From Pseudomonadota bacterium (GTDB taxonomy: Bacteria; Pseudomonadota; Gammaproteobacteria; Burkholderiales; JBEEJL01), in the NCBI GenBank assembly GCA_043744215.1, contig JAYTVC010000014.1:16932-80931 (forward strand): a DNA stretch of 64,000 nucleotides. The letters run 5' to 3'. Under the pieces are notes generated by a model. It did not search any database. It saw only the letters and a list, made by a program, of their open reading frames with translations, and had not been told where the DNA came from. This document shows, one piece after another, positions 1,161 through 61,520 of this stretch; position 1 is the stretch's first letter, and each line of letters starts with the position of its first letter. A program made the position numbers and the translations under genes.

Positions 1161-1162
1161 AT

Positions 1163-1189
1163 TAAGTATTTGATTATATTGAATATTTT
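1163..1189 (-). repeat. AT-rich 28-bp intergenic motif with IHF core (copy a)
   Basis: Reverse complement reads AAAATATTCAATATAATCAAATACTTA and contains WATCAANNNNTTR. It abuts the tpiA start codon. Confidence 0.7.
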
Positions 1190-1414: not shown

Positions 1415-1573
1415 GAATGGGTGTCCTGGTTTAACCACCATCGGTTGCTGGAATCAATTGGCTACATTCCGCCGGCAGAAGCTGAGGTAAACTATTACCG
1501 GCATCTCGCCACGAAAGCCGCTACGGCGGCTTAACTTAAACCAAATAGCCTCCGCGAAACCCGGGGCGATTCA
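1415..1573 (+). pseudogene. IS3-family transposase remnant (last ~39 codons plus putative right end)
   Basis: The frame reads EWVSWFNHHRLLESIGYIPPAEAEVNYYRHLATKAATAA*, typical of the C-terminal tail of IS3 DDE (rve) transposases. The 5' part is missing, and the fragment starts right after a REP copy. The downstream sequence ends ...CCGGGGCGATTCA, like an IS3 TG..CA terminus. Confidence 0.6.
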
Positions 1574-1774
1574 TTAGGCTTTATAAAATTGTGGCTTACA
1601 AACTGGCTTAGAAGCACAGGTGCATATTGAAGTACAAGTTGCAGTCTCGTTTGGGTTGGCAGTGTCCATCTCCGTTGTTGGTGTAGTATTAACCGCTATG
1701 GAGGTAGCTATGAAAAACTTGAACGCCGTTATTTTTAGTTTTATGGCATGTATTTGGTGCGGAATTGCGTTCCT

Positions 1775-1879
1775 GCGGAGCCTGGTGGAAATTCCAACCC
1801 AAATGAGAGAAAAACTTGTATAGATCGTGTTGCCTGCTAAGAGTGAACGTGGAAGGTCCGATTCCTTCCCTCCGCACCA
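1775..1879 (+). pseudogene. Decayed tRNA-like element (tRNA-Leu-like 5' part, intact T-arm/acceptor 3' strand/CCA)
   Basis: The 3' end GAAGG-TCCGATT-CCTTC-CCTCCGC-A-CCA is a canonical T-arm plus acceptor plus CCA. GCGGAGC about 100 nt upstream complements the acceptor. The total is 105 nt with no foldable anticodon or D arm, so it is not a functional tRNA. Confidence 0.35.
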
Positions 1880-1958
1880 ATTTTAATGTGCTGACCAGCA
1901 GCGCTAACTAGTCAATCAACCGCGACCGCCTTCGGCGGCGCGGTTATCTCCAGCAAGC

Positions 1959-2038
1959 GTAGGGTGCGCTTGCGCACCACCTCTCGTTCCGTCTTAACCG
2001 ATTTCTTCTCCAGCATCTGGTGCGCAAGCGCACCCTAC
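1959..2038. repeat. REPIN-like inverted REP doublet, family A
   Basis: GTAGGGTGCGCTTGCGCACC at 1959-1978 and its inverse at 2019-2038, with a 40-bp spacer. It lies just downstream of the RAYT stop. Confidence 0.8.
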
Positions 2039-2054
2039 GGTTTTGGTTTTTCCG

Positions 2055-2615
2055 TCATTCACCATAAACCTCCTTCTCTTCGCCCATAGCTTCAAACTCT
2101 GATGTGCCTGCCCAATGCGAAGGATAAATTCCCCGCTCAACATATTTATGGAAGGTGGAATACGGCCAATCGGCAACCCGTGAAACATGTTTATGTTTTA
2201 CTGGATTGAAATGAAGGTAATCGGCATGGCGTTGATAATCAAGCTCGTCGCGGATTTGGTGTTCCCAAAAACGGCGCTGCCAAAACCTTGATTCATTTCT
2301 TTTGATGCGGGATTCGCTTTTGGGTGATGTAAGCTGAACGAGATGCTCGCATTGTTTGCTGACCGTGCGTTTAATCAAAGACCAGCGGATGCCGAAATTG
2401 GCATCGTCTTCGGGCAAGGTCCAAATACAGTGAAGATGATCGGGCAGTAATACCCAGGCGTCGATGATAAAAGGATGCTTTGTTCTCGCGAGGTTGATAC
2501 CTAGGCGCAATGCGTTGCGCACTTCCGCCTGAGTGAGTAAGGCTTGGCGACAGTAGGTATTGACGGTGAAAAAGTAGGTGCCGCCTTGTACCTTGGATCT
2601 GCGGTATTCAGACAT
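2055..2615 (-). CDS. REP-associated tyrosine transposase (RAYT, IS200/IS605-like Y1/HUH)
   Basis: 186-aa ORF with the HUH motif in LLPDHLHCIW and a C-terminal Tyr region YLHFNPVKH. Family A REP copies lie within ~20 nt of both gene ends. Confidence 0.85.
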   Translation of the reverse strand: MSEYRRSKVQGGTYFFTVNTYCRQALLTQAEVRNALRLGINLARTKHPFIIDAWVLLPDHLHCIWTLPEDDANFGIRWSLIKRTVSKQCEHLVQLTSPKSESRIKRNESRFWQRRFWEHQIRDELDYQRHADYLHFNPVKHKHVSRVADWPYSTFHKYVERGIYPSHWAGTSEFEAMGEEKEVYGE

Positions 2616-2632
2616 GGTGTGTTGTTGGAATT

Positions 2633-2652
2633 GGTGCGCGAGCGCACCCTAC
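2633..2652 (-). repeat. REP family A single copy
   Basis: GGTGCGCGAGCGCACCCTAC. It lies between the RAYT start and glmM, and the glmM stop codon (2649-2651) lies inside it. Confidence 0.75.
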
Positions 2653-4024: not shown

Positions 4025-4858
4025 TTAATTTTGCGACTGCACTGCTTGTAATACTGCCAGCGCGTCTTTGGTCGCGGCAACATCGTGAACACGTATGATA
4101 CTCGCGCCATTTTGCGCGGCAAGCAAAGCAGCGGCGACGCTGGCATGAACGCGCTCGGGCGTGAGCTTGCCGGTGAGCTCGCCGAAAATGGATTTGCGCG
4201 ATAAGCCGGCGAGCACGGGATAACCAAGATCCGCGATTTTTTGCAGGCCGCGCAGCAGCGCAAGATTGTGAACAGTACGTTTGCCGAATCCGAAACCCGG
4301 GTCGAGCACGATGCGATTTTTTTTAATGCCCGCCTGTTCGCACGCGGCCGCACGCGCCGAAAGAAAGCGCGATACGTCGCTTAAAATATCAATATAATCA
4401 ATAACTTGCTGCATGGTCGCGGGGATGCCGAGCATATGCATTAAACATATGCCGACATTGGTTTTGGCAACAACTTCGATCGCACCCTCGGCACGCAATG
4501 CATTCACATCATTCACCATGCTTGCGCCGGCTTCGATCGCAGCGCGCATCACTTCAGGTTTTTGCGTGTCGATGGATAGCGGAATATTTTTTTCGCGCAA
4601 CGCAACGATCACGGGCATCACGCGCTGCAATTCTTCATCCAGCGCGACGGGCAGTGAACCGGGCCGTGTCGATTCGCCACCAATGTCGAGAATGTCTGCA
4701 CCCTCGTCGATCAATTTCAGCGCATGTTCAATCGCACGGTCGCGCGAAAAAAATTTGCCGCCATCGGAAAAAGAATCGGGCGTAACGTTGACGATGCCCA
4801 TGATGAGCGGGCGCGTGAGTGACAGAGAATAGTTACCGCAGATTAAAACTTTGTCCAT
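4025..4858 (-). CDS. folP: Dihydropteroate synthase
   Basis: The ORF track gives 4025..4975. I place the start at the internal ATG (MDKVLICG...), about 19 aa before the conserved [15 protein letters not shown]. Confidence 0.9.
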
Positions 4859-7044: not shown

Positions 7045-7662
7045 TTATTTCTTGTCCTTGCCGAGTAAATACACTTCGTTGCTGCGGTCGCGGGAGGCAT
7101 CGGGCTTTCGAGTGGCGATACTGGCAAATTCCTTGAGCAAAATTTTGTAATATTCATCGAAGCCTTCGCCCTGAAACGTTTTGACCAGAAATGCACCGCC
7201 CGGTTTCAAATGCTCGATGGTAAATTCAAGCGCCAGCTCGCACAGCGCCATACTGCGCGCCTGATCCGACAGCGGTATGCCACTAATATTGGGGGCCATA
7301 TCGGAAAGTACAAGGTCCACCGGCTTGCTCATGAGCAAAGTTTTTAACGCGGCCAGGCCATCGTCGCTGGCAAAATCTGCCTGTAAGAAAGTGACGCCCT
7401 GCAGTGGCGCCATATCAATCAAATCAATGGCAATCACGCGGCCATTGCCTTTCATGCGCTCGGCCGCCACCTGCGACCAGCCGCCGGGCGTAGCCCCCAG
7501 ATCGACGATCGTCATGCCGGGCTTGATCAGCTTATCGCGCGCGTCAATTTCCATCAGCTTATACGCGGCGCGGGAGCGATAGCCTTCGCGCTTGGCGCGC
7601 TGCACGAACGGGTCGTTAATATGTTCACGCATCCAGCCTTTGCTGGTTCGGGTGGGTTTCAT
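7045..7662 (-). CDS. rlmE: 23S rRNA (uridine2552-2'-O)-methyltransferase RlmE/FtsJ
   Basis: 205 aa with SAM motif [12 protein letters not shown]. It lies upstream of ftsH, as is usual. Confidence 0.93.
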
Positions 7663-7979
7663 TAATGCGCTGAAGTCGCGCGATGCACAACTGGACGAAT
7701 CTTCGGCGCAAGCTGAGGCTCAAGCTCGCGCTTAGCCATACGCAGATCATAACTACACTGCAAATTTACCCAGAACTCGGTTGTCATATCAAAATAAAGA
7801 CCGAGACGCACAGCAGTGTCCATAGTTATCGGCCTGCCGTTTTTGGTAATGTCGGTGATACGGCTCGGCGGTACATCAATATCTCGCGCCAGCTGGCTAG
7901 GCGTAATACCCATAGGCTCAAGAAAATCCTTGAGTAGAATTTCGCCCGGTACAATTTCGGGTAATAATTTTTTAGCCAT
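7662..7979 (-). CDS. higA: HigA-family antitoxin (XRE HTH)
   Basis: 105 aa. [34 protein letters not shown]...[11 protein letters not shown] matches the HigA addiction-module antidote pattern. It lies downstream of the toxin. Confidence 0.85.
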
Positions 7980-7995
7980 TATATTTCTCCATCAC

Positions 7996-8274
7996 TCAGT
8001 GATAATCCACGATTTCAACGTTATAAACGCCATCGTCTTTCCAAACAAAACACACACGCCATTGATCATTAACGCGAATACTGTGCTGACCTTTACGCTT
8101 GGATTTCAATGCTTCAAGCCGATTACCCGGCGGCACCTTCAAATCATCAAGCCGGGCGGCAGCATCAAGTTGAAGTAACTTTCGTCTAGCGACAGATTCA
8201 ATATTTTTGAAGCGCCGCACATCGACGCTATGAAATAACGCTTCGGTGTCTGGGCAGGCGAAAGATCGAATCAT
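7996..8274 (-). CDS. higB: HigB-family toxin (RelE/ParE superfamily, plasmid maintenance killer type)
   Basis: 92 aa. MIRSF...LDAAARLDDLKVPPGNRLEALKSKRKGQHSIRVNDQWRVCFVWKDDGVYNVEIVDYH is the characteristic HigB layout. Confidence 0.85.
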   Translation of the reverse strand: MIRSFACPDTEALFHSVDVRRFKNIESVARRKLLQLDAAARLDDLKVPPGNRLEALKSKRKGQHSIRVNDQWRVCFVWKDDGVYNVEIVDYH

Positions 8275-8301: not shown

Positions 8302-8404
8302 TATGTCAAACAGAACAAATAATAGAAACTTTAAGGTTTTCGGGAACAAAGCCTGGCTTGCCCGTATAATCAAGATTGATTAACTAATGCTTTTGAAAGT
8401 CCTT

Positions 8405-8962
8405 ATGCTCACCATCACCATCGAAAAACGCCGCGCGCTTCGCGCCGAAGCCCACGCACTCAAACCCATTGTGATGATCGGTAACGCCGGCCTCACCGAT
8501 GCCGTCATCAAAGAAATTGAAAACGCGCTTACCAACCATGAGCTGATGAAAATCCGCGTCTTCAGCGACGAAAAAGACGCCCGCGAAACCATTTTGCAGG
8601 CCATTTGCGAGCGCATCGGTGCAGCGCCGATACAGCACATTGGCAAAATTCTGGTGATTTACAAACCGTCGGAAAAAATCGCCGAGGCAAAAAAAATCGC
8701 CGCAAAAAAAACCGGCACGGCAAAAGCAAGCCCATCGCGCCGACCGCGCAGCGTCGCCAAAACGGCCAGCGGAAAAAAATGGACGGCGCGAGACTCGGCA
8801 GCCGTGCATGCCACAGTGCGCAATGCGGCTGCGCGCGGTGAACCAATCGAAAAAGAATTTGATGCGGCGGACCCCGGCAACAAAAAACGCCGCTTCGCTA
8901 CCGGCTCGGGCTCAACCATCAAGCACGGCGGTTTAAGCGTGCGGCGCAAACGCACGACGTGA
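8405..8962 (+). CDS. yhbY: RNA-binding CRM-domain protein YhbY with long basic C-terminal extension
   Basis: The first ~95 aa (LKPIVMIGNAGLTDAVIKEIENALTNHELMKIRV...) match YhbY. The remaining ~90 aa are K/R/A-rich. The track ORF starts at 8387; ATG 8405 fits YhbY length better. Confidence 0.8.
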   Translation: MLTITIEKRRALRAEAHALKPIVMIGNAGLTDAVIKEIENALTNHELMKIRVFSDEKDARETILQAICERIGAAPIQHIGKILVIYKPSEKIAEAKKIAAKKTGTAKASPSRRPRSVAKTASGKKWTARDSAAVHATVRNAAARGEPIEKEFDAADPGNKKRRFATGSGSTIKHGGLSVRRKRTT

Positions 8963-9018: not shown

Positions 9019-9045
9019 GTAACTATTTGATTTTATTCATATTTT
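9019..9045 (-). repeat. AT-rich IHF-core motif (copy b)
   Basis: Reverse complement is AAAATATGAATAAAATCAAATAGTTAC. It overlaps the stop of the greA 3' fragment. Confidence 0.7.
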
Positions 9046-9122
9046 ATGTCGATGATTTCATATTCGCGCACTCCGCCGGGTGCCTGCACTTCGGCGACGT
9101 CTCCGGGATATTTGCCAATCAG
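9033..9122 (-). pseudogene. Orphan 3' end of greA (last 29 codons + stop)
   Basis: Encodes LIGKYPGDVAEVQAPGGVREYEIIDIKYE*. It is collinear with 9579-9668 of intact greA: 9 differences in the stop-proximal 45 nt, mostly synonymous, and none in the other 45 nt. Confidence 0.85.
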
Positions 9123-13463: not shown

Positions 13464-14117
13464 CTAACCCAACGTCGTCGTCGCCAACTTGGCGCCGAAG
13501 CCGATAAACATCGCGCCGACCGTAGCCGCCAAACTGGCCGACAATTTTTTCCGACGGCTGAAAGTCTCGGCCAATTTTGCGCCCGCGATAATCAGCGTGC
13601 TCAAATAAATAAAACTGGTGATCTGAATGATGCTGCCCAAAATCAAAAACGTCAGCGCCGGGTGCGGATAAACCGGATCGACAAACTGAATAAAAAACGA
13701 AATCAAAAACATGATCGCTTTCGGATTCAATAAGCTGATCACGAGAGATTTTCTAAATAGTTGATTTAATTCAATTTTTTTAGGTTTCTCGATTGGCCCT
13801 ACTGAACCATTTTGCGCGCGAAAATTTTTCGCCGCACCCATCAACAACTGCACACCAATCCACGCTAAATAAATGGCACCGGCATATTTCACAACCAAAA
13901 ATAATGCCGGATTCGCTTTCAACACCGACGCCACGCCCGCCGCCGACAGAAACATCAGAATCGTGTCGCCAACAAAAATGCCACATGCCGCGAGGTAACC
14001 TGCCTTCACTCCGCGCTGCACTGCCACCGACAACACAAACAATGAATTCGGGCCCGGCAACAGCACGATAAAAATCACGCCCAGCACATACGTCCATAAA
14101 TCGGTAATGCCGTACAT
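13464..14117 (-). CDS. leuE: LysE/RhtB-family amino-acid exporter, LeuE-like
   Basis: 217 aa, collinear with E. coli LeuE (YWTY..IFIVL.PGPN.LFVL...GYLAACG.F.GD..LMFL). It lies between carA and carB. Confidence 0.65.
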   Translation of the reverse strand: MYGITDLWTYVLGVIFIVLLPGPNSLFVLSVAVQRGVKAGYLAACGIFVGDTILMFLSAAGVASVLKANPALFLVVKYAGAIYLAWIGVQLLMGAAKNFRAQNGSVGPIEKPKKIELNQLFRKSLVISLLNPKAIMFLISFFIQFVDPVYPHPALTFLILGSIIQITSFIYLSTLIIAGAKLAETFSRRKKLSASLAATVGAMFIGFGAKLATTTLG

Positions 14118-15395: not shown

Positions 15396-16412
15396 TTATT
15401 GGCTCGGCAAACCCAACAACGATACATCGCCCGTTTGCACCGCTTTCAAAATCAGCTGTCGCACCCGTTGCACCTCATTGCGATCGGCATCGCTATCGAG
15501 GTTGTCAAGAATTTGTTTACTGACATTCGGCGCGGCGCATCGGTTCTGGTCGATGCAAGCGCTGACCCAACTGACGGAATCGCGCGTGCAATCGGCACCC
15601 AAATCGCAGGCAACCATGCGCGCGGCCGCATCGACAACCTCGTAACTGATGGGCTGATTGCCCAGGCCCAACAGCATGTAATCGAGGCCGGGGCGCTGCA
15701 ACAGCGAAGCCATTTCGGCTATGGCGTAAGGGTCCTGCGCCTTCAATACGCCGCCAACTGTTTTGGCAATATCGGCGTCGGAATATTTATCATCGATGAG
15801 CACGCCGAGTGACGCGCGCGCCTTCACATCGCCCTGCTGTACGGCGGCTTCTTTTAATGCACCCAGTTCGCGCAGCGTTTCTTTTACAGGCCGCGTTTCC
15901 AAACCATTACAGCGACTTTGCAAAATTTTGAATGCCTCAGTGCGGTCAGCCAATTCTTTACCTTCCGCGCTCCACTGATAAAAATTATCTGCGGATTCGT
16001 AGGTTTTTCCCTGCGGGTTTTTGGCAAAGCGCACACAGATTTCCAGCGCATTGGCCACCCAGAATTTGAAACCGGGCGATGGGTTGTTGCGATATTTTTC
16101 GTAAAACGCCTTGAGGTCGCGGGCCCGTTGAAACTCCAGCGCGACGGCCATCTCCGGCGCCAGCAGTTTTTCCGACGCAGGATTTTTCTCGACGTTTGCA
16201 CGCGATGGCGCATCGACCGGTTGCGCCAATTTCGCCTCCGACTCTTTTGCGGAAGGCGAAAGTGGTTCCGTTCTACTATCGGCGGCGGTGGAAGAAGCTG
16301 AAACTTTTGGGCGAAGAGTAGACGCGGAATGTTGATCAAAAGGATAGTACAACAAGACGCCAGCGATGGCTAAAATACTGATAATAATCAAATAGATAGC
16401 GTATTTCTGCAC
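15396..16412 (-). CDS. Hypothetical membrane-anchored protein
   Basis: 338 aa with an N-terminal TM helix, an S/A/P-rich linker, and a ~240-aa Cys-containing domain that I cannot assign to a family. Confidence 0.6.
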   Translation of the reverse strand: MQKYAIYLIIISILAIAGVLLYYPFDQHSASTLRPKVSASSTAADSRTEPLSPSAKESEAKLAQPVDAPSRANVEKNPASEKLLAPEMAVALEFQRARDLKAFYEKYRNNPSPGFKFWVANALEICVRFAKNPQGKTYESADNFYQWSAEGKELADRTEAFKILQSRCNGLETRPVKETLRELGALKEAAVQQGDVKARASLGVLIDDKYSDADIAKTVGGVLKAQDPYAIAEMASLLQRPGLDYMLLGLGNQPISYEVVDAAARMVACDLGADCTRDSVSWVSACIDQNRCAAPNVSKQILDNLDSDADRNEVQRVRQLILKAVQTGDVSLLGLPSQ

Positions 16413-18208: not shown

Positions 18209-18610
18209 ATGACTGTTGATTTTCGTTTGCTGCTGCGCTCACTGCTGCTTGCCACCACGCTTATAGTTGTATGCGGCCAGGCGTCAGCGTATGAAGCGCC
18301 CTCGGGGCTGCGCAAATTATTCGGCTCCTCCGACAGCGCCACCCTAACCGTCAGCCAGCTTCCCGGTGAAGCGCAAGACACGCTCAAGCTGATCAAACAA
18401 AAGGGGCCCTTCCCTTATAGCCGCGATGGCGTCGTATTCAGCAACCGCGAAAAACGCCTGCCCAAACAAGCGCGCGGCTATTATCATGAATACACCGTCA
18501 AAACCCCCGGCGCGCGCAATCGCGGCGCGCGGCGCATCATCGCCGGCAACGCCGGCGAATACTATTACACCGACGACCATTACGATTCCTTCAAACAGAT
18601 TAAGGAGTAA
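18209..18610 (+). CDS. Secreted guanyl-specific ribonuclease (barnase/RNase Sa family)
   Basis: 133 aa with a signal peptide. YYHEYTVKTPGARNRGARRIIAG...YYYTDDHYDSFKQI matches the microbial RNase catalytic core. Confidence 0.8.
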   Translation: MTVDFRLLLRSLLLATTLIVVCGQASAYEAPSGLRKLFGSSDSATLTVSQLPGEAQDTLKLIKQKGPFPYSRDGVVFSNREKRLPKQARGYYHEYTVKTPGARNRGARRIIAGNAGEYYYTDDHYDSFKQIKE

Positions 18611-18613
18611 GCC

Positions 18614-19051
18614 TTGAAGACGCTGAAATCTTTATTGGCAGAAAAAAAACACGGCGGCGTATATCAACTCACCTCCGCCGCCGCCCATTCTGAAATTGAA
18701 AAAGCCGCCAAGGCCGCGAAGTTCGCCTACTTCCACATCGAAGGCAAAAAGATCGAGAAAAAAGAACAATTTCTCAATCACGCCTCCGTCGCCATGCACT
18801 TCCCCGAATATTTTGGCGACAACTGGGATGCGTTCGAAGATTGCCTCACCGACCTCTCATGGCAAGATGCGCCGGGTTACGTGATTCTGTTCGACCACTA
18901 CGACGCCATGGCCGCCCACGCCCACGGCCAATTCGAAACCGCGCTGGAAGTATTCCAAAGCGCAGTTGAATTCTGGGAAGAACAAAGCAAAGTCATGATC
19001 GTATTACTGCGAGGCAAACCGTTACTGGAAGATGTTGAAAAAATCGGTTGA
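18614..19051 (+). CDS. Barstar-family RNase inhibitor
   Basis: 145 aa with a TTG start 7 nt after AGGAG. The NWDAFEDCLTDLSW motif is barstar-like. It starts 4 nt after the RNase stop. Confidence 0.75.
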   Translation: MKTLKSLLAEKKHGGVYQLTSAAAHSEIEKAAKAAKFAYFHIEGKKIEKKEQFLNHASVAMHFPEYFGDNWDAFEDCLTDLSWQDAPGYVILFDHYDAMAAHAHGQFETALEVFQSAVEFWEEQSKVMIVLLRGKPLLEDVEKIG

Positions 19052-19888: not shown

Positions 19889-20605
19889 TCAGGCATGCCG
19901 AGGGCAGATTATTTGTAACTTATTGATTATATTGATATTTTTTACGCAAATATGGGTGCCGTAAGCCAGCACTTCGACGCCGCATTTCAATGCATCACGC
20001 AATGTTTTACCGTACACCGCATCAATCTCATCGGCCGGCCGCACTTGCTCTACATCATCCCGCTGTACGCAAAACACCAACACCGCGCGATGGCCCGCTT
20101 GCACCACGGCCATTAATTCACGCAAATGTTTGCTGCCCCGCTTGCTCACCGCATCGGGGAACAACGCGATGCCATCGCTCACAGCCGCCGTGACATTTTT
20201 TACTTCGACAAAACATTGTTCGCCGTTTGATTTGCTCAGCAGCAAATCGACGCGGCTATTTTCTGCGCCAAATTTTACTTCGCGTTTTATTTCTGCGTAA
20301 CCTTGCAGCGGATGGATGATGCCGTTTGCTATCGCTTCTTCCACCAAACGATTGGGCAATGAGGTGTTGATGCCGACGAGCGTATCGCCGACTTCGATCA
20401 ACTCCCAGGTATGCGCATATTTTCTGTCAGGGTTTTCCGACTGCGATAGCCACACGCGGCTGCCAGGCTCGCACACGCCCATCATCGAGCCGGTGTTGGG
20501 ACAATGGGCGGTGAGGGTGCTGCCGTCGGCCAATTGCACATCGGCAAGAAAGCGTTTATAGCGTTTGATCAGCCGGGCTTCAATCAACGGCGATGCAAAT
20601 TTCAT
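19889..20605 (-). CDS. sfsA: Sugar fermentation stimulation protein SfsA (DNA-binding nuclease-like)
   Basis: 238 aa with N-terminus MKFASPLIEARLIKRYKRFLADV, typical of SfsA. Its start overlaps the putA stop (ATGA). Confidence 0.85.
   Translation of the reverse strand: MKFASPLIEARLIKRYKRFLADVQLADGSTLTAHCPNTGSMMGVCEPGSRVWLSQSENPDRKYAHTWELIEVGDTLVGINTSLPNRLVEEAIANGIIHPLQGYAEIKREVKFGAENSRVDLLLSKSNGEQCFVEVKNVTAAVSDGIALFPDAVSKRGSKHLRELMAVVQAGHRAVLVFCVQRDDVEQVRPADEIDAVYGKTLRDALKCGVEVLAYGTHICVKNINIINKLQIICPRHA
19915..19941 (-). repeat. AT-rich IHF-core motif (copy d), inside the sfsA 3' end
   Basis: Reverse complement is AAAATATCAATATAATCAATAAGTTAC. It is translated as KNINIINKLQ in the sfsA ORF. 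Confidence 0.7.
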
Positions 20606-23600
20606 GCAGCGCCTTGGTCGGAAAGCAAACTCGCATTGCCGCCGACCGCAGCGGTATTGATGGTCACGGTGCGCTCGGTGGCGAAGCGGAATAAGTAATG
20701 GGGGCCGCCCGCTTTCGGTCCGGTGCCCGACAATCCTTCGCCACCGAAAGGTTGCACGCCAACGACCGCACCAATCATGTTGCGGTTTACATAAAGGTTG
20801 CCGACTTTGGCTTTGGCTGAAATAAATTCAATCGTGTCGTCGATGCGGCTGTGAATGCCCAAGGTGAGACCATATTGTAACTTATTGATTTCATTTAATA
20901 TTTTAGCCATATCTTTCGATGCAAAACGAACCACATGCAACACGGGGCCGAACACTTCGCCTTCGAGTTCATCAAGACTTTTTAATTCATAAACACACGG
21001 CGCGAAAAAATTTCCGTTTGCGCAATCGGCGGGCAAAGTCATTTCGCACATCATTTTTGCCGACTGGCGCATTTTTTTCTGGTGGTTTTGCAGCATCGAC
21101 AACGCATCGGCATCAATCACCGGGCCGATGTCGGTGGTAAGTTGCGCAGGGTCGCCGATAACCAGCTCTTGCATGGCCCCTTGTAATATATGCAGCACGC
21201 GGTCGGCAATTTCCTCCTGCAAAAATAATACGCGACACGCCGAACAGCGCTGACCCGCGCTGTTGAATGCGGAGGCAATAACATCATTCACGACTTGTTC
21301 GGGCAAGGCGGAGCTATCGGCAATCATCACATTCACGCCGCCGGTTTCGGCAATGAATGGAATAATCGCGCCGCCGCGCGCGGCGAGCGAACGGTTAATC
21401 GCCTGCGCCGTTGCTGTCGAGCCGGTGAACACTACGCCATGGGTGCGCACATCATTTACCAGCGCCGCGCCGATAATTTCGCCGGGGCCGGGCAAGACAC
21501 ACAGCACAGCTTTCGGAATGCCCGCCTCGTGCAAAAGTCTTGCTACCAAGCAGGCAATCAAGGGCGTTTGTTCAGCGGGCTTGGCGATGACTGCGTTACC
21601 CGCCGCCAGTGCGGCAGCCATCTGCCCGACAAAAATCGCCAGCGGAAAATTCCATGGGCTGATGCAAACGAATACGCCGCGCCCATGCAGCGACAAGGCA
21701 TTTGATTCTCCCGTTGGGCCTTTAAGCACATCCGGTGCAGCAAAATGTTTACGTGCTTGCAACGCGTAGTAGCGGCAAAAATCCGCCGCTTCGCGCAACT
21801 CGGACAACGCATCGCCGTGCGTCTTGCCCGCCTCGCGGATGAGCAATGCCATTAACTCAGCGCGATGGGCTTCGATTAAATCGGCGGCGCGGTCAAGGTA
21901 GTCGGCGCGCGTTATGGCGGGCGTGGCGTTCCAATTCGGCGCGGCGGCGGTAGCTATGTTTAACGCCAAATCCACATCTTGTAGCGAAGCATCAACGACG
22001 CTACCGGTTTTGCGCCGCCGATCTGCCGGATCGCTCACCTCGTGCGATGAATCTTTACTCGGCTCGCCATTGATCATCGGCGCGGCGTACCAGTGTGCGC
22101 TTGCCAAAAAATTTTCCATACTTTGCTTTAATACTTTCAATTGACTAACGTCCGCAAAACTCAAGCCCGCAGAATTTTTTCGATCAGGCTGATACAAATT
22201 TTGCGGCGCAGGTATCGTCGGATGAGCAATGGTTTTCAGAGCGCGCACCGCCGCGACGGGGTCGGCGACCACTTGTTCCACCGACGTGGCTTCATCGGCA
22301 ATACGATTCACGAACGAGGTATTCGCGCCGTTCTCCAACAAACGTCGAACCAGATAAGGCAACAAATCCGCATGCACGCCAACGGGTGCATAGACGCGAC
22401 AAGTGAGCGAATTATCTTTCAGCACTTCGCCATAAAGTGATTCGCCCATGCCGTGCAAACGCTGAAACTCGAAGTCGCGGCGGGATTGCGCGAGTTCCAA
22501 TATCGAAGCAATCGTCTGCGCGTTATGGGTGGCGAATTGCGCATAAAATGCCTGCGCATCATTGAGCAATAATTTTGCGCACGCTATATACGCCACATCG
22601 GTGTTCACTTTGCGCGTGTAAACGGGATAGCCGGCGAGGCCCTGCATTTGCGCGCGCTTGATTTCTGTATCCCAATACGCGCCCTTCACCAAACGCACGG
22701 GAATGCGTTTTGCATTTTGCGTCGCGTGTTGTGCAAGCCACGCTATCACATGGGGCGCACGCTTTTGATAGGCTTGCACAGCGAGACCGAAACTGTTCCA
22801 ATCCGCCAATTGAGAATTGCTAAAAATATCAATATAAACAGATAGTTGCAAATCAAGGCGTTCAGCCTCCTCTGCATCAATGGTGATACCAATTCCTGCC
22901 TGCCGCGCTTGCTCGCACAAAGCCAACACGCGCGGCACGAGTTCGCGCATCACGCGATTTTTTTGCAGCGGCTCGAAGCGCGGATGCAGCGCAGAGAGTT
23001 TGACGGAAATGCTTGGCGCGGCAAAAATATCGGTTTTATTTTTTGAATGCTTTGCAACAACCTCAATCGCATTTGAGTAAGCAGCAAAATATTTCTCTGC
23101 GTCATCGCTTGTCAGCGCCGCTTCACCCAGCATGTCGAACGAATATCGATAACGTGCGCTATCCTTGTCCGCGCTGCGCTTTACCGCCCGCTCGATGTCG
23201 TGCCCCATGACAAATTGTTCCGCCATAATGCCCATCGCGGCACGGATGGCTTGCCGCGCGACAGGCTCGGTCAGGCGCGTAAATAATTTTTCTATTTTTG
23301 AGATTGCATCGGTCGGCGCAGGGGCCTGGTCAGACAATCTTCCCTGCAACAGCATGCCCCAGGTCGAAGCATTCACCAGCCACGAATCACTCTGGCCCAC
23401 ATGCTGCTTCCAATTGCCCTGCGAAAATTTGTCGCGAATCAACGCATCCGCCGTCGCCGCATCAGGAATGCGCAGCAGCGCCTCGGCCACGCACATCAGC
23501 AACACGCCCTCATGCGTGGATAGATCGTATTGGTGCAAAAACGATTCGATGCCGGTGATTTTGCGCCCGCGTACGGCATTTACCAAAGCCACCGCGCGCG

Positions 23601-25089: not shown

Positions 25090-25118
25090 GTTTTTCCTTG
25101 ACTATTTATTGAAATAAT

Positions 25119-25562
25119 TCAGTTACGAACCACCAGCACCGCGCCGGCAATCAGCATCAATACGCCGATGAATCTTAACAGGCTGATTGGTTGTAGCGGA
25201 TACCCGAGCAACCCGAATTGGTCGAGCACCATCGACGCGCACAATTGCCCGCAAATAATCAGCGCAAAATACGTCGTGGCGCCAAGTTTTGGGCCGAGCA
25301 GGATGGAACCCACCACATAAATCGCGCCGAGAAATCCACCTAGCCACGACCACAGTGATGGCGTGGCGACGGCCGCTGCACTGGGAATGGGAATGCGCAT
25401 CAGCACACCGACGACAACCAACGCGACCAGGCCCACCGCAAAATTCGCCAGCGCGCCCCATAACGGATGCCCAAGTGCATTGCGGATGCCGGAGTTCATG
25501 GCGATTTGTATGGGCAGGCCGATACCGACGACGAAGGCGGCGAGGACGGTGAAGAAGTTCAT
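25119..25562 (-). CDS. DMT-superfamily membrane protein (YdcZ/DUF606-like)
   Basis: 147 aa with 4-5 TM helices. The N-terminus LPIQIAMNSGIRNALGHPLWGALANF resembles DUF606. Its stop lies in a degenerate copy of the AT-rich motif (25102-25126). Confidence 0.6.
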   Translation of the reverse strand: MNFFTVLAAFVVGIGLPIQIAMNSGIRNALGHPLWGALANFAVGLVALVVVGVLMRIPIPSAAAVATPSLWSWLGGFLGAIYVVGSILLGPKLGATTYFALIICGQLCASMVLDQFGLLGYPLQPISLLRFIGVLMLIAGAVLVVRN

Positions 25563-25710: not shown

Positions 25711-26409
25711 TCACGCCATATCAAACAACAAAAACTCCGCGTGATTTTTTGTGCTTAAGCTCAGCCATTTTTCATCGTGAATTTTTGCGCCGTCGCCAGC
25801 GTTCAATACTTGTCCATTCACTTCCATACTGCCACGCGCGACGTGAATATAGGCGACACGGCCATTTTCGATGCTTTTCGTAAGTATTTGATTATTATCA
25901 ATAATTGAGGCGTATATCGACGCATCCTGAAATATTTTTGCCGAGCCTTCACGCGCATCGAACGATGCAATCAAACGTAATTGCCCGCGCTTTTCGTCAT
26001 CGCTGAATGGCTTTTCTTCGTAGCCGGGTTGGATGCCGGTGAACTTGGGCATCAGCCAGATTTGCAGCAAATGCACTTGCTCGGTTTGCGAGGCATTAAA
26101 TTCGCTGTGGGTCACGCCCGTGCCCGCGCTCATGCGTTGCACATTGCCCGGTTTGATGACCGAGCCGTTGCCCATGCTGTCTTTGTGTTGCAACGCGCCT
26201 TCCAACACATAGGTGATGATTTCCATATCGCGATGGCCGTGGGTGCCAAAGCCCATGCCGGGCGCGACGTAATCTTCGTTGATCACGCGCAACGAGCCGA
26301 AGCCCATTTCTTGCGGGTCGTAATATTCGGCGAATGAAAAAGAGTGGGAAGTTTTCAGCCAGCCGTGATCGAATTGGCCTCGGTCGGTGCTTTTGCGTAG
26401 GGTAATCAT
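25711..26409 (-). CDS. Pirin-family protein
   Basis: 232 aa with a bicupin fold. The metal-site region is GFGTHGHRDMEIITYVLEG. Confidence 0.85.
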   Translation of the reverse strand: MITLRKSTDRGQFDHGWLKTSHSFSFAEYYDPQEMGFGSLRVINEDYVAPGMGFGTHGHRDMEIITYVLEGALQHKDSMGNGSVIKPGNVQRMSAGTGVTHSEFNASQTEQVHLLQIWLMPKFTGIQPGYEEKPFSDDEKRGQLRLIASFDAREGSAKIFQDASIYASIIDNNQILTKSIENGRVAYIHVARGSMEVNGQVLNAGDGAKIHDEKWLSLSTKNHAEFLLFDMA

Positions 26410-30869: not shown

Positions 30870-31781
30870 ATGACTACGCCAAACATTTATGGTGGCCGCT
30901 TCGCTCCCTCTCCAACCGGCCCGCTGCATTTCGGCTCGCTCGTTGCCGCCGTTGGCAGTTATCTTGATGCCAAAGCCCATGGCGGCCAGTGGCGGGTGCG
31001 CATGGAAGACCTGGACACGCCACGCAACATGCCCGGCGCAGCCGATGGCATTTTGCGTGCGCTGGAAAAATTCGGCTTCGCATGGGATGGCGACGTGGTC
31101 TATCAAAGTGAACGCATTCAGTTGTATGAAGCTGCGTTGCAGAGTCTGCGCGAAAAAAAACTTGTCTATCCTTGTGCATGCACACGAAAAGAAATCGCCG
31201 ACTCGTCTATCCTCGGCATAAATGGACCCGTGTATCCGGGCACCTGTCGCCATGCCTTGCCCGCAGGCCGCGAAGCGCGTGCGTGGCGCGTATGCGCTGA
31301 CAAAAAAATGATAATATTCAATGACTTACATTATGGCGATATTTCGCAAAATGTCGCCTCGCAAGTCGGCGATTTTGTATTGCTGCGTGCCGATGGCCGC
31401 GTAGCTTATCAACTCGCTGTTGTCGTGGACGATGCCGAACAAAAAATTTCCCATGTTGTTCGCGGCGCGGATTTACTCGGCTCGGCTCCGCGACAAATAT
31501 ATTTGCAGCAGCTTCTCGGTTACGCGACGCCGCACTATTTGCATCTGCCCGTCGCCGTGAACGAGCGTGGCGAAAAACTCAGCAAGCAAACGTTGGCAGC
31601 ACCGTTAGACGCAGACAACCCGCTGCCAAATCTGCGCGCCGCGCTGAACTTTCTTGGCCAGCGGCTGCCCGACAAGTCGCACAACCTGTGCGAAACGTGG
31701 GAATGGGCGATCAGGCACTGGTCGCGGGAAAGCATTCCGCGCGTCGACACCTCAGTGCCCAATATACGCATTTCGTCGTAA
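30870..31781 (+). CDS. gluQ: tRNA glutamyl-Q(34) synthetase GluQRS
   Basis: 303 aa, a truncated GluRS-like protein. GRFAPSPTGPLHFGS, plus KLSKQ. Confidence 0.88.
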   Translation: MTTPNIYGGRFAPSPTGPLHFGSLVAAVGSYLDAKAHGGQWRVRMEDLDTPRNMPGAADGILRALEKFGFAWDGDVVYQSERIQLYEAALQSLREKKLVYPCACTRKEIADSSILGINGPVYPGTCRHALPAGREARAWRVCADKKMIIFNDLHYGDISQNVASQVGDFVLLRADGRVAYQLAVVVDDAEQKISHVVRGADLLGSAPRQIYLQQLLGYATPHYLHLPVAVNERGEKLSKQTLAAPLDADNPLPNLRAALNFLGQRLPDKSHNLCETWEWAIRHWSRESIPRVDTSVPNIRISS

Positions 31782-33083: not shown

Positions 33084-33111
33084 AAAATATTCATTATAAT
33101 CAAATAGTTAC
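33084..33111 (+). repeat. AT-rich IHF-core motif (copy f)
   Basis: AAAATATTCATTATAATCAAATAGTTAC, between the adaptor and permease genes. Confidence 0.75.
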
Positions 33112-40638: not shown

Positions 40639-40666
40639 AAAATATTCAATATAATCAAATACTTAC
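40639..40666 (+). repeat. AT-rich IHF-core motif (copy g)
   Basis: AAAATATTCAATATAATCAAATACTTAC, 16 nt after the EamA stop and 30 nt before the next start. Confidence 0.75.
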
Positions 40667-43737: not shown

Positions 43738-43765
43738 AAAATACTGAATATAATCAATATGTTAT
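43738..43765 (+). repeat. AT-rich IHF-core motif (copy h)
   Basis: AAAATACTGAATATAATCAATATGTTAT, 62 nt upstream of cydA. Confidence 0.7.
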
Positions 43766-46217: not shown

Positions 46218-46244
46218 ATAACTATTTGATTATTATCAGCTTTT
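46218..46244 (-). repeat. AT-rich IHF-core motif (copy i)
   Basis: Reverse complement is AAAAGCTGATAATAATCAAATAGTTAT, 8 nt after the cydB stop. It is inverted relative to copy h. Confidence 0.7.
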
Positions 46245-46311
46245 ATACATCAAAGACAAAAATTTTATGCGTGTGAAGTGACTGTAAAATAATTTCAAAT
46301 ACATCCGACAT

Positions 46312-50145: not shown

Positions 50146-50176
50146 AAATAATAATTCAATATAATCAATCAGTTAC
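50146..50176 (+). repeat. AT-rich IHF-core motif (copy j)
   Basis: AATAATAATTCAATATAATCAATCAGTTAC. The ilvD stop codon (50165-50167) and last codons lie inside it. Confidence 0.7.
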
Positions 50177-51911: not shown

Positions 51912-52706
51912 ATGCTCACCCACCCGCAATTTGATCCCGTCGCCGTACAACTCGGCCCCCTCGCCATCCGCTGGTACGGCTTGATGTATGTGCTGGCCTT
52001 CGCCATGTTTTGGTTTATGGGGCGCTATCGCATTCGCAAAAACGCCAGCGGCGATTTTAACGAAACGCAATTAGAAGACATGCTGTTTTACGGCGTGCTC
52101 GGCGTGATTCTTGGCGGGCGATTGGGGTATGTTTTGTTTTACAAATTCTCGTACTACCTCGCGCACCCGCTGGAAATTTTTATGGTGTGGCAGGGCGGCA
52201 TGTCGTTTCACGGTGGATTCCTCGGCGTATTTTTTGCCATGTGGTGGTTTGCGCGCAAAAGTGGCAAGCACTGGATGCAAGTCACCGATTTTGTGACGCC
52301 GCTCGTGCCGCTCGGTTATGCGGCCGGGCGGATGGGAAATTTTATCAACGGCGAATTGCCCGGACGCATCACCGATGTGCCATGGGGTATGTGGTTTCCG
52401 CAGGTGGATAAACTGCAAACCATTCGCCACCCGTCGCAGCTTTATCAATTCGCGTTGGACGGCGTGTGCCTGTTTATCATAATGTGGCTGTTCTCGCGCA
52501 AACCGCGACCGATGGGCGCGGTGTCGGGATTATTTTTGATCGGCTACGGCACATTTCGCATCATCACCGAATTCGCGCGCGAACCGGACGACTTTCTCGG
52601 CTTTCTCGCGCTCGGATTATCGATGGGGCAATGGTTGAGCGTGCCGATGATGATTGCCGGCATCGCGATGATGGTGTGGGCGTATCGCGCGGGGCGTGAG
52701 GCGTGA
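51912..52706 (+). CDS. lgt: Prolipoprotein diacylglyceryl transferase
   Basis: 264 aa. IRWYGLMY and [11 protein letters not shown] motifs. The last codons and the stop lie in the heptamer array. Confidence 0.93.
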
Positions 52707-52839
52707 GGCGTGAGGCGTGAGGCGTGAGGCGTGAGGCGTGAGGCGTTAGGCGTTAGGCGTTAGGCGTTAGGCGTTAGGCGCTAGGCGCTAGGCGCTAGGC
52801 GTTAGGCGTTAGGCGTTAGGCGTTAGGCGTTAGGCGTTT
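52693..52839 (+). repeat. Heptanucleotide tandem array, 21 units in 4 blocks
   Basis: GGCGTGA x7, GGCGTTA x5, GGCGCTA x3, GGCGTTA x5, plus one GGCGTTT. That is 147 bp with no gaps. Confidence 0.95.
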
Positions 52840-54241: not shown

Positions 54242-54270
54242 AAAATTATTGTTAATAATCAAATAGTTAT
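54242..54270 (+). repeat. AT-rich IHF-core motif (copy l)
   Basis: AAAATTATTGTTAATAATCAAATAGTTAT, 2 nt from the tRNA-His 3' end. Confidence 0.7.
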
Positions 54271-58979: not shown

Positions 58980-59007
58980 AAAATATTTAATAAAATCAAT
59001 ATGTTAT
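58980..59007 (+). repeat. AT-rich IHF-core motif (copy m)
   Basis: AAAATATTTAATAAAATCAATATGTTAT, in the AT-rich gap between aorD and the R-M pair. Confidence 0.7.
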
Positions 59008-59103: not shown

Positions 59104-60570
59104 TTGCTATCAGTTGTTGAACAAACCCGTTTGAAAGTGTCAGAACGAACCGACGCGAAGAAGAAATCGCTGCTCGGGCAATTTCTTACGCCTGCAAACA
59201 CGGCCTCATTCATGGCAGGGCTTTTCCCCGCGTCAAGCGGTGAATGCAGTCTGCTGGATGCTGGGGCGGGGATTGGCTCTCTATCGAGCGCATTTCTTGA
59301 AACGTGCGTAACTGGAAAACTAAACTTCAAAAAAATACATCTAAAAGCATTTGAGCTTGATGATTCCATACATGGCGAACTTCAGCACTGTCTTTCTTCT
59401 TATCTTCAAAAATGCAATTTCTCATTTGAAGTGATTGGAAATGATTTTATAGAGGAAGCAGTTAATACAATTCAATTTCAAAAATACAATTTCACCCACG
59501 CGATACTGAATCCGCCTTACAAAAAAATCGGAAGCAATTCAAGTTACCGCTTGCTTCTTCGTGAGGCCGGAATTGAAACCGTCAATCTTTATTCCGCCTT
59601 TGTGGCGCTGGCCGTGGCAATGGCAGCACCAGGCGGACAGGTCGTGGCGATCATTCCGCGGAGCTTCTGCAATGGGCCGTATTATCGCCCGTTCCGTGAC
59701 TTCATCCTTGAGCGTGCAGCCATCCGGCACATGCACTTGTTCGGATCCCGTAGCAAGGCATTCAAAGATGATGAAGTTCTGCAAGAGAACATCATCATTC
59801 GGCTAGAGTGTGGCGGCCAGCAAGGACCGGTAACGGTTTCCACATCAACGGACGACAACTTTTTAGACCTTGAAACCTATGAACACCAGTTCGACCGAAT
59901 AGTGTTCCCGGACGACTCCGAGCGGTTTATTCATGTGCCTATTTTGGCCGAAACATCCACCGCGTTATCCCCGATCATTCGTCATACGCTAACCGATCTT
60001 GGCATCAAGGTTTCGACAGGGCCGGTAGTCGATTTTCGACTGAAAGAGCATCTACGCGACATGCCAGAACTCGGCACTGCTCCCTTGCTTTACCCCGGTC
60101 ATTTCAGCAGCAACGCCACAACCTGGCCGCAAGCTGGCATGAAGAAGCCGAACGCGATCCTGCGCAACAGTGATACCGAAAAATGGTTGTATCCAAACGG
60201 CTATTATTGCGTGGTACGCCGCTTTTCATCGAAGGAAGAAAAGCGGCGGGTAGTGGCGGGCGTGGTTGCCCCTGATTCATTTGACGGTGCGACCATGTTG
60301 GGCTTCGAGAACCATCTAAATCTGTTCCATGAAAACAAACGTGGCTTGCCGCAAGCGTTGGCGCGTGGGCTTGCCGTATTCCTGAATTCGACCATCGTTG
60401 ACGACAATTTCAGGCGGTTTAGCGGGCATACGCAGGTCAACGCAACCGACCTCAAACAGATAAAGTACCCAAGTCGCGCCGCCCTGATTGAGCTTGGAGA
60501 ATGGGCGATGCAACAAGGCGAACTCACGCAAACACTGATTGATAGCAAGTTACGAACTCTCACCGCATGA
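59104..60570 (+). CDS. N6-adenine DNA methyltransferase (gamma-class, Eco57I/PstI-type M subunit)
   Basis: 488 aa. Motif I LDAGAGIGSL precedes motif IV ILNPPYKK. The TTG start is 7 nt after AGGAGG. Confidence 0.8.
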   Translation: MLSVVEQTRLKVSERTDAKKKSLLGQFLTPANTASFMAGLFPASSGECSLLDAGAGIGSLSSAFLETCVTGKLNFKKIHLKAFELDDSIHGELQHCLSSYLQKCNFSFEVIGNDFIEEAVNTIQFQKYNFTHAILNPPYKKIGSNSSYRLLLREAGIETVNLYSAFVALAVAMAAPGGQVVAIIPRSFCNGPYYRPFRDFILERAAIRHMHLFGSRSKAFKDDEVLQENIIIRLECGGQQGPVTVSTSTDDNFLDLETYEHQFDRIVFPDDSERFIHVPILAETSTALSPIIRHTLTDLGIKVSTGPVVDFRLKEHLRDMPELGTAPLLYPGHFSSNATTWPQAGMKKPNAILRNSDTEKWLYPNGYYCVVRRFSSKEEKRRVVAGVVAPDSFDGATMLGFENHLNLFHENKRGLPQALARGLAVFLNSTIVDDNFRRFSGHTQVNATDLKQIKYPSRAALIELGEWAMQQGELTQTLIDSKLRTLTA

Positions 60571-61520
60571 ACAACAAGAATGATTACATTGAGGCCGCTC
60601 ACCAGATCATTATTTCTTTGGGCCTGCCTCGGGCGCAACAGAACGAGCGTACCGCCCTTTGCCTGCTGGCTTTATTGAACCTCACGCCGGGCTCGGCGTG
60701 GGCTGATGCGCAAAATCCACTTGTCGGCATCACCCCAATCATGGATTGGGCTCGGGAACACTACGACAAGGAATATGCGCCGAACACACGAGAGACAATC
60801 CGCCGTCAGACCATGCACCAGTTCTGCGATGCCGGGATTGCGTTGTACAACCCGGACAAACCAGACCGCCCGGTGAATAGCCCGAAGACGGTCTATCAGG
60901 TTGAATCTGCTGCGTTGGCCTTGCTACGCACCTTTGGCTCGCCCATGTGGCATGACGGCCTTGCGACTTATTTGGCCAAGCGTGAAACGCTGATTGTCCG
61001 CTATGCAATGGAGCGAGAGCAAAGTCGCATCCCGGTTGAGATCGCGCTGGGGAAGGAAATCACCCTCAGTCCCGGCGAGCATAGCGAATTGATCCGAGCC
61101 ATCATTGCGGACTTTGCCCCGCGCTTCGCGCCGGGGAGCGTTCTGGTCTATGTCGGCGACACGGGCGAGAAGTGGGGTTACTTCGATGCGCCCTTACTGG
61201 CTGCGTTGGGTGTCGATGTGGATTCACACGGCAAGATGCCGGATGTGGTGCTGCACTTCACCGCGAATAACTGGTTGCTACTGGTCGAGTCTGTCACCAG
61301 TCACGGCCCCGTCGATGGCAAACGACACACCGAGCTGGCAAAACTTTTTGCTGGATCAACTGCTGGGCTAGTCTATGTGACTGCCTTCCCGAACCGGGCG
61401 ATCATGAGCCGCTACCTAGGCGAAATCGCATGGGAAACGGAGGTGTGGGTAGCTGATGCACCGTCCCATCTGATCCACTTTAATGGCATCCGTTTCCTTG
61501 GACCGTACAATGCGCCCTAA
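60567..61520 (+). CDS. Type II restriction endonuclease, BsuBI/PstI-family-like
   Basis: 317 aa. The C-terminal core MPDVVLHF...WLLLVESVTSHGPV...YVTAFPNR...IAWETEVWVADAPSHLIHFNGIRFLGPY matches my recollection of the BsuBI/PstI RE family (PD...ExV/K-type). ATGA overlap with the methylase gene. Confidence 0.6.
   Translation: MNNKNDYIEAAHQIIISLGLPRAQQNERTALCLLALLNLTPGSAWADAQNPLVGITPIMDWAREHYDKEYAPNTRETIRRQTMHQFCDAGIALYNPDKPDRPVNSPKTVYQVESAALALLRTFGSPMWHDGLATYLAKRETLIVRYAMEREQSRIPVEIALGKEITLSPGEHSELIRAIIADFAPRFAPGSVLVYVGDTGEKWGYFDAPLLAALGVDVDSHGKMPDVVLHFTANNWLLLVESVTSHGPVDGKRHTELAKLFAGSTAGLVYVTAFPNRAIMSRYLGEIAWETEVWVADAPSHLIHFNGIRFLGPYNAP

Follow-up and report, generated by a model that had tools for sequence, protein, structure and literature searches.

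An evenly spaced 28-bp repeat with the anatomy of an integration host factor site in a clade of uncultured Betaproteobacteria

In Escherichia coli, a consensus site for integration host factor (IHF) is repeated over the chromosome in the RIB and RIP elements (reiterative ihf BIME and repetitive IHF-binding palindromic element, respectively), where it lies in the L linker of the bacterial interspersed mosaic element BIME-1; a frequent location is the 3' end of a transcription unit (PMC3333891). A structural or topological role has been proposed for these elements (PMC3333891; PMC3184786). The Correia elements of Neisseria and QMITE1 of Coxiella also carry a WATCAANNNNTTR core on a dispersed repeat (PMC3184786; PMC5896051). 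We here discuss a 28-bp motif that resembles both kinds and is scattered over a window of 64 kb from a Pseudomonadota bacterium (contig JAYTVC010000014.1 of assembly GCA_043744215.1), the window being the whole stretch of DNA analysed; the copy first noted, at 33084-33111, reads AAAATATTCATTATAATCAAATAGTTAC. To our knowledge, repeated IHF sites have been met only as passengers in clusters of repetitive extragenic palindromic (REP) sequences or in miniature inverted-repeat transposable elements (MITEs), and their role has been unsettled for 30 years. Here, the IHF-type site is the whole repeat: it is dense, even and conserved across species, and it extends into coding sequence, where codons and amino acids have changed to accommodate it.

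The likeness to the known systems has its limits. In RIB/RIP, the IHF site lies between inverted REP palindromes and is strictly extragenic; the present motif stands alone, without flanking inverted REP sequences, and is not extragenic, as 8 of its 18 copies lie in genes. It is also at least 10 times denser than RIP elements. Correia elements and QMITE1 are insertions of 100-400 bp with terminal inverted repeats and target duplications, whereas the motif is a bare 28-bp block created by substitution; it has no conserved flanks, and its host proteins are colinear with their homologues. Nor do the copies share a stem-loop palindrome like that of REP sequences and their hairpin-forming doublets (REPINs). 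An original prediction, made from the letters of the window, had compared the motif with RIP/BIME and Correia elements. The comparison is apt as to how such sites would work, but not as to membership: REP palindromes, inverted repeats and insertion signatures are all missing.

A weight matrix of 28 columns, built from 14 copies anchored at their ATCAA core, finds 18 non-overlapping copies in the window at ≥24 bits, 16 of them at ≥30 bits, which corresponds to about one per 3.5 kb. The original prediction had counted at least 11 good copies. All eleven lie within 1-3 nt of where it had put them and score 37-47 bits; it had missed seven (4382, 13753, 16372, 20877, 22822, 25880 and 31302). Its three degenerate copies did not survive, the one at 25099-25126 scoring 11.7 bits and the other two less than 8 bits. 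Chance hardly produces such sites. None at ≥24 bits was seen across 200 global dinucleotide-preserving shuffles of the window, shuffling in local blocks of 100 bp left a mean of 0.025, and none was found in 1.22 Mb of unrelated proteobacterial DNA, a negative control made up of loci from a PutA metagenome scan (homologues of ≤59% identity only). The suspected enrichment is real, with 18 sites against none in the global shuffles or the unrelated DNA; the earlier consensus, with 3 mismatches allowed, found 3 sites in the window versus 0 in 100 shuffles. The motif is real, more numerous than first counted, and not ordinary.

When the window was pooled with 34 loci of related genomes, 69 copies became available for a logo. 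The consensus, AAAAWATTnAATATAATCAAATAGTTAC, is 28 bp long, AT-rich and sharp-edged. Information falls to about zero within 1-5 nt of both edges, and the logo reveals no longer element, terminal repeat, inverted repeat or target duplication around the 28-mer. ATCAA is present in 69 of the 69 copies, and the core ATCAA-N4-TTA, the conservation of which had been foreseen, in every copy of ≥30 bits. A perfect TATAAT is embedded at positions 12-17, each column being conserved in 59 to 69 of the 69 copies. On the opposite strand, each copy still scores 14-20 bits, a consequence of the pseudo-palindromic centre of the motif. Six copies, folded as single strands, yielded no stable or common hairpin (minimum free energy -0.1 to -3.6 kcal/mol, z -1.9 to +1.0).

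The canonical IHF site consists of WATCAA, a TTR located 4 bp further 3', and two steps, mostly AA, that are 9 bp apart and intercalated by prolines (PMC1874591); some sites have in addition a tract of 4-6 A in their 5' half (PMC1874591; bioRxiv 10.1101/382655). All four elements are recovered in the logo, where they are the most invariant columns. AATCAA occupies positions 15-20 in 68-69 of 69 copies, TTA positions 25-27 in 67-69 of 69, with four weaker N4 columns in between. The AA steps at 10-11 (65 and 51 of 69) and 19-20 (69/69) are exactly 9 bp apart, and the A-tract, AAAAWA at positions 1-6, precedes ATCAA by 9 bp, as in the H' site of lambda attP (PDB 1IHF). H' itself (AAAAAAGCATTGCTTATCAATTTGTTGC, a string confirmed in lambdoid phage records) aligns in register with the motif at 16 of 28 identical bases and has A-tract, two kink steps, WATCAA and TTR in the same places. 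The IHF architecture claimed in the original prediction is borne out, and the two kink steps strengthen it beyond what had been noticed. The sequence evidence for IHF-type recognition of the motif is strong, and its 28-bp length and asymmetry fit the footprint of IHF, a heterodimeric DNABII protein. We give an even chance to the explanation that we favour: that the motif constitutes a clade-wide array of predicted IHF-type bend or anchor sites, kept every ~3-4 kb, and probably serving chromosome architecture or supercoil insulation. A curiosity of the literature may be mentioned here. In Table 2 of PMC6907758, as extracted, the motifs look swapped, with WATCAANNNNTTR under H-NS and TCGATAAATT under IHF.

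Of the 18 copies, eight lie within coding sequence; the other ten are intergenic or extend over a stop codon (Table 1). Gene context was read from the Pfam annotation of the window, the eight coding calls being Pfam-supported or otherwise plausible coding sequence: folP, the LysE-family gene, the open reading frame (ORF) at 15396-16412 for a membrane protein, sfsA, putA (two copies), the pirin gene and gluQRS. Three of them (4382, 16372 and 22822) run antisense. The earlier claim that every copy marks the end or the start of a gene is incorrect, since the seven missed copies and the one at 19915 are in coding sequence; the claim arose because only a subset of the copies had been seen. The neighbours named at the time are right: copies sit 1 nt from the tpiA ATG, 2 nt from tRNA-His and 1 nt from a heptamer array, and they flank cydAB.

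The copies in genes reveal how the motif is made. The pirin and GluQRS proteins align without gaps to E. coli YhhW and YadB, respectively, across the residues that the motif encodes, and FolP is colinear across the motif segment in four species. Since the host proteins are colinear with their homologues, the coding copies arose by substitution and not by insertion. In folP, the transition can be followed. The motif strand reads GACATCCTGATATTGCGGGTCGATCTG in the outgroup L200, where it is GC-rich, TAAAACATCAATATATTCAATATTATTC in L198 (below 15 bits), TAAAACATCTTTATAATCAATTAATTGC in L199 (23 bits) and TAAAATATCAATATAATCAATAACTTGC in the window (33.6 bits); the protein shifts together with it from QYQDVV to DYIDIL. 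(The L numbers designate loci of other genomes.) The coding copies use one sense and one antisense frame of the consensus, i.e., the ones without a stop codon. By this comparison, the motif has been written into genes through synonymous and conservative substitutions.

Alternatively, the copies could owe their presence to a mobile element, as its relics, solo ends or favoured targets, be it a MITE, the end of an insertion sequence or the site of an integrase or transposase. Variable accessory genes near copies invite this view: the interval from glmM to tpiA has a different cargo in each of three species, the copies after cydB and near yhbY have toxin-antitoxin pairs next to them, and 46218(-) and 50149(+) form an inverted pair around 3.9 kb. 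However, the motif-carrying proteins contain no insertion, and neither flanking repeats nor inverted terminal repeats, target duplications or a hairpin accompany the copies. Within the bracketed 3.9 kb, genes for a cytochrome c and a DUF255 thioredoxin-like protein are found together with small ORFs, but no transposase; viral contigs gave chance matches to a 17-mer of the motif only, and no full-length copies; and orthologous copies with private variants bespeak vertical descent. A role of mobile elements is, in consequence, very improbable. A MITE or another insertion as the origin is ruled out by protein colinearity, unconserved flanks and the missing hairpin, and a composite transposon 46218(-)/50149(+) by the absence of a transposase or integrase between its ends. 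The earlier idea of a footprint or target of a mobile element finds no support in the colinear coding copies or at the tpiA locus, where the break of synteny lies ~65 nt away from the motif.

Syntenic loci could be compared from five related genomes. The copy at the tpiA ATG has the same place and orientation in 3 species, which have an unusual TTAA end in common; L198 carries the identical 28-mer at this place, and L199 differs by one change. The copy upstream of cydA is kept in place and orientation in 5 species (window, L196, L197, L203 and L204), most of them with T at position 21, and the one downstream of the eamA-like gene in 4 (window, L197, L203 and, degenerate, L196). A copy upstream of a patatin gene is likewise kept in place and orientation in 3 relatives, and a coding copy in an ABC transporter gene is identical in two. 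Around the orthologous copies kept in place the flanks diverge. The orthologues have private variants in common, and this implies vertical descent under purifying selection rather than re-copying from a master element. The conservation in relatives, a check proposed in the original prediction, extends for some copies over 3-5 species.

Inheritance is vertical, yet it goes along with turnover. After cydB, the copy is flipped at the same spot, (-) in the window and (+) in L197 and L203. At the ilvD stop it is (+) in the window and (-) at 43.4 bits in L033, where a relic (+) core lies alongside. The window lacks a copy that L198 and L199 have at the ftsH stop, and the tRNA-Ala copy has decayed in L033.

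The copies are spaced evenly. For the 18 copies, gap lengths have a coefficient of variation of 0.47, versus 0.92 when sites are placed at random (P about 0.001); P is similar under a null model with 12 sites restricted to gene boundaries. Intergenic copies leave three gaps of >7 kb, and it is there that all six clearly internal coding copies lie; coordinate arithmetic puts the chance of this at ~0.014. Similar gaps are seen in relatives, 3.0, 2.5, 3.5 and 3.7 kb in L197 and 3.3, 2.6, 2.8 and 2.6 kb in L203; the two share ancestry, and their gaps are therefore not independent tests.

Orientation is unrelated to gene direction: among the copies that neighbour genes, 6 face a downstream gene, and 6 run into a gene or tRNA from its 3' side. 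This matters for the obvious suspicion raised by the embedded hexamer, namely that the copies are promoters or parts thereof, with TATAAT as the -10 element and the upstream A/T-rich tract acting like an UP element on adjacent genes. The conservation of TATAAT, the six intergenic copies that face a downstream gene, and three copies that gain a 4-of-6 -35 hexamer at 16-18 nt would be in line with it. But the logo shows neither a conserved -35 nor a TG extension, promoter-like matches in the window are no commoner than in shuffles, and the copies flip at orthologous spots. At tpiA, moreover, a separate conserved promoter-like block, TTGCCC-17-TAGAAT, is found 39 nt upstream of the motif, and it is at this block, ~65 nt upstream of the motif, that homology between the species resumes. 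As a general function, the promoter is ruled out by the 6:6 orientation, the eight copies within genes, three of them antisense, and the -35 hexamer matched in 3 copies only; overall, promoters or parts of promoters are hardly credible.

The start of tpiA is unusual. It lies 1 nt past the motif, has no Shine-Dalgarno sequence and is kept in three species; in L199, the gene caller put the start at an ATG within the motif.

How far does the motif reach? An exact scan for the 17-mer TATAATCAAATAGTTAC covered 185,579 species genomes, the matches listed being a lower bound. Among these matches, multiple ones per genome occur only in uncultured Betaproteobacteria, several deposited as Gallionellaceae or Gallionellales, others as Burkholderiales, Nitrosomonadales or Betaproteobacteria. 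The nearest genome among the matches listed is GL52_DN_metabinner_5, with 84% nucleotide identity over ilvD-lgt. The 8-kb loci of the betaproteobacterial genomes contain further full-length copies with the same consensus and no obvious dialects, and in the pooled sample ~85% of the copies are intergenic. In total, the motif is common to at least 12 uncultured betaproteobacterial genomes and one genome labelled Coxiellaceae. The outgroup L200, with 82% FtsH identity, has no copy in 22 kb.

The Coxiellaceae-labelled genome deserves attention. Its locus L030 (PLMI01000089.1, deposited as Coxiellaceae bacterium fen_1226; 34% GC) has three stand-alone intergenic copies with the same consensus in 8 kb, and its CoaBC is closest to gammaproteobacterial proteins. 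The loci L201 and L202, from a gammaproteobacterium of 39% GC with 60% CoaBC identity to L030, have no copy in 35 kb. Judged from these sequences, L030 may represent a second, independent lineage with the same motif. A distantly similar case was seen in Gammaproteobacteria bacterium SMAG_U15688, where a ~200-bp repeat occurs on two contigs (L061 4780-5080 and L046 6640-6900). It contains three boxes of the form GTATAATCA(A/T)W(A/T)RGTTA(C/T), 53-63 bp apart, that resemble the 3' two-thirds of the motif, yet are part of a longer unit.

If the favoured explanation is correct, the 28-mer would offer a DNABII protein a set of features that are read by shape: the A-tract in one flank, two ApA kinks 9 bp apart, WATCAA between them and TTR in the other flank. 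IHF or a paralogue would be the predicted ligand. The sites are made in place by substitution of single bases, within genes through synonymous and conservative changes as well, and are inherited vertically; selection would keep the presence of a site about every 3-4 kb, irrespective of its orientation. The bound protein would put a sharp bend or an anchor at each copy. With most copies at the edges of transcription units, such bends could hold plectonemes in place, keep supercoils from passing freely from one unit to the next and help to condense the nucleoid. Related ideas exist: a modelling study reports IHF to pin plectonemes and to be capable of dividing DNA into topological domains (PMC9519438), and E. 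coli is known to carry repeats bound by IHF at the 3' termini of its transcription units (PMC3333891). The original prediction had thought of an architectural or insulator element. The indifference to orientation and the even spacing agree with this; some 24 bits of excess information are not explained by it. The clade offers a natural system to test what site-specific bending does at the level of the chromosome, with domain boundaries, supercoil barriers and nucleoid anchoring as candidate roles.

Several observations weigh against this explanation. The information content is ~37 bits, a value inflated by thresholding, versus ~13 bits needed for the observed density, which leaves the excess of ~24 bits. 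Lambda H', a top-affinity site for E. coli IHF, scores 4 bits on the family matrix, and the family is therefore far narrower than the sequences that E. coli IHF binds well. H' also differs in being a single functional site within a recombination complex. Positions beyond the IHF elements are conserved (T8, TAT at 12-14, ATAG at 21-24, and C28), and the perfect TATAAT is not accounted for by IHF either. Almost all Proteobacteria have IHF, yet only particular clades have the array, and it is absent from L200, L201 and L202. Copies are found in coding sequence even though an intergenic spacer lies no more than a few hundred bases away. A search for IHF or HU genes in the sampled loci of the clade found none, which carries no weight either way.

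Some of these difficulties would vanish if the motif were the site of another clade-specific and highly specific DNA-binding protein, such as a specialised DNABII paralogue or an unrelated factor of the nucleoid or of segregation, the gene for which would have a patchy distribution and be open to horizontal transfer. The likeness to IHF sites would be partial or convergent. The excess of ~24 bits, the positions that E. coli IHF does not read, and the patchy occurrence of one consensus in a betaproteobacterial clade and a Coxiellaceae-labelled genome, with relatives lacking it, are what one would expect of such a protein. No candidate protein has been identified, however, and four IHF elements at exact spacing are not easily understood unless this reader bends DNA like IHF. 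We regard this possibility as rather unlikely.

Another way to account for excess information is biased DNA uptake. Competent cells would prefer DNA with the motif, better-matching alleles would be re-imported and recombined more often, and the motif would accumulate by molecular drive wherever it is tolerated; it would be comparable to the DNA uptake sequences (DUS) of Neisseriaceae and the uptake signal sequences (USS) of Pasteurellaceae. These sequences are very abundant, have excess information, are restricted to clades, arise by substitution, occur in genes, are evenly spaced and are found in both orientations. The motif behaves similarly: it is over-represented throughout a clade on both strands, within and between genes, arises by point changes and is evenly spaced. 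Its copies in genes emerge by substitution, affect stretches of protein that are little conserved and keep to the motif's open frames, its information content is far above what the density requires, and one consensus prevails in a clade, in at least 12 species, whereas neighbours lack it. The IHF-like shape would then reflect an extreme bendability needed in uptake, or a receptor of the DNABII type. Known uptake sequences, however, have cores of 9-12 bp that contain G and C, and occur about once per kb, whereas the motif is 28 bp long, AT-rich, about three times sparser at ~1 per 3.5 kb, and matches the site of a cytoplasmic protein. Uptake also gives no reason for the exact match to the four IHF elements, and ~85% of the pooled copies being intergenic does not favour it. 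In the literature, we found no paper on this motif, nor on uptake sequences in Gallionella. An uptake signal is unlikely, but this drive and the more specific reader protein are both to be taken seriously as alternatives.

A more daring thought may be added, which we consider doubtful even with its two versions taken jointly. The 28-mer might be a genome-wide mark of punctuation, a 'self' signal spread by substitution and bias and not by transposition. In one version, it would be a third, independently evolved DNA uptake sequence, the shape of which mimics the U-turn site of IHF; in the other, a regular grid of DNABII anchors selected even into coding sequence. If true, a transferable determinant of the mark would explain the identical consensus in the betaproteobacterial clade and in the Coxiellaceae-labelled genome. 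Excess information and the same consensus in two distant lineages may also reflect an unrecognised drive, be it an uptake bias or a mobile reader protein.

Other identities were considered and discarded. An FNR/CRP box, TTGAT-N4-ATCAA, is not the common denominator, as its left half is unconserved (G at position 9 in 18/69, T at position 11 in 17/69); a full box exists only in occasional copies, e.g., 25880. A Fur box would match at best 9 of 19 positions by eye, and the motif is not palindromic; a dif/Xer site, which also measures 28 bp, matches at ~9 of 28 by eye. Both are probably to be dismissed. An RNA element is ruled out: Rfam finds only the four tRNAs of the window, there is no fold, and both orientations relative to transcription occur. 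A link to intrinsic terminators is not tenable either. A few copies adjoin a strong hairpin with T-run (9019 and 54243), and most strong terminator-like sites have no copy nearby.

Table 1. Copies of the 28-bp motif in the window and in locus L030, with scores on the family weight matrix and gene context
Copy	Strand	Score (bits)	Context
1162..1189	-	43.3	1 nt before tpiA ATG; no Shine-Dalgarno
4382..4409	+	33.6	within folP, antisense
9019..9046	-	39.7	between convergent yhbY and greA; 4 nt from hairpin and T-run
13753..13780 (weak)	-	24.0	within LysE-family gene, sense
16372..16399	+	32.4	antisense in N-terminal hydrophobic segment of ORF 15396-16412
19915..19942	-	42.6	codes for part of SfsA C-terminal tail, past Pfam domain end
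20877..20904	-	39.4	within putA aldehyde dehydrogenase domain, sense
22822..22849 (weak)	+	25.2	within putA proline dehydrogenase domain, antisense
25880..25907	-	39.2	within pirin gene, sense; codes for ...IIDNNQILT...
31302..31329	+	36.3	within glutamyl-Q tRNA(Asp) synthetase gene (gluQRS), sense
33084..33111 (first noted)	+	46.9	15 nt past stop of membrane-fusion gene, 102 nt before RND pump gene
40639..40666	+	46.0	between eamA-like gene and 189-aa gene
43738..43765	+	41.2	62 nt upstream of cydA
46218..46245	-	37.1	8 nt past cydB stop
50149..50176	+	40.6	overlaps ilvD stop codon
52840..52867	-	46.0	between heptamer array and tRNA-Ala
54243..54270	+	39.5	2 nt from tRNA-His 3' end, 18 nt from strong hairpin with T-run
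58980..59007	+	39.6	96 nt upstream of restriction-modification methylase gene
L030 2614-2641			intergenic
L030 4908-4935			intergenic
L030 6626-6653			intergenic

The window is an ordinary region of the core chromosome. It contains secG-tpiA, glmM-folP-ftsH-rlmE, yhbY, greA, carB-lysE-carA, dapB, bamE, fur, sfsA, putA, the pirin gene, two systems of the resistance-nodulation-division (RND) type, gluQRS, cydAB, ilvD, lgt and tRNA genes. Some of its variable parts merit a brief description.

The interval between glmM and tpiA (window 1190-2648; L198 7030-8933; L199 6478-7498) holds different cargo in the three genomes: a 186-aa ORF without Pfam match in the window, DUF5694 and GFA genes in L198, and a TacA/acetyltransferase toxin-antitoxin pair in L199. 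The segment 46360-50109 after cydB, with its cytochrome c, the DUF255 thioredoxin-like protein (683 aa) and small ORFs, is bracketed by inverted motif copies; it is not syntenic with L197, L203 and L204, which have a cluster around an extracytoplasmic function (ECF) sigma factor there. The heptamer array (52693-52838) consists of 20.9 tandem copies of GGCGTTA with 97% matches. It begins within the final codons of lgt, and its other end is 1 nt away from the copy at 52840. L033 lacks the array at the orthologous place and has ~1.1 kb of extra DNA instead.

A pair of a HigB-like toxin and an antitoxin with helix-turn-helix domain (7662-8274) lies between rlmE and yhbY; it is present in L199 and absent in L198. 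The exporter gene of the LysE type (13464-14117), which holds a weak motif copy, is inserted between carB and carA. Directly downstream of fur, a gene pair encodes a barnase-like ribonuclease and a barstar-like inhibitor (18209-19051). The restriction-modification pair at 59104-61520 combines an Eco57I-type methylase domain with an endonuclease of the BsuBI/PstI type, and the 58-60 kb segment around it has the lowest GC content of the window (0.494). YhbY (8387-8962), finally, has its CRS1/YhbY domain at residues 11-93, followed by a C-terminal extension of ~100 residues that weakly matches the histone H1-like HC2 family; the protein has a similar length in L198 and L199 (175-176 aa), and 99 aa in the outgroup L200.

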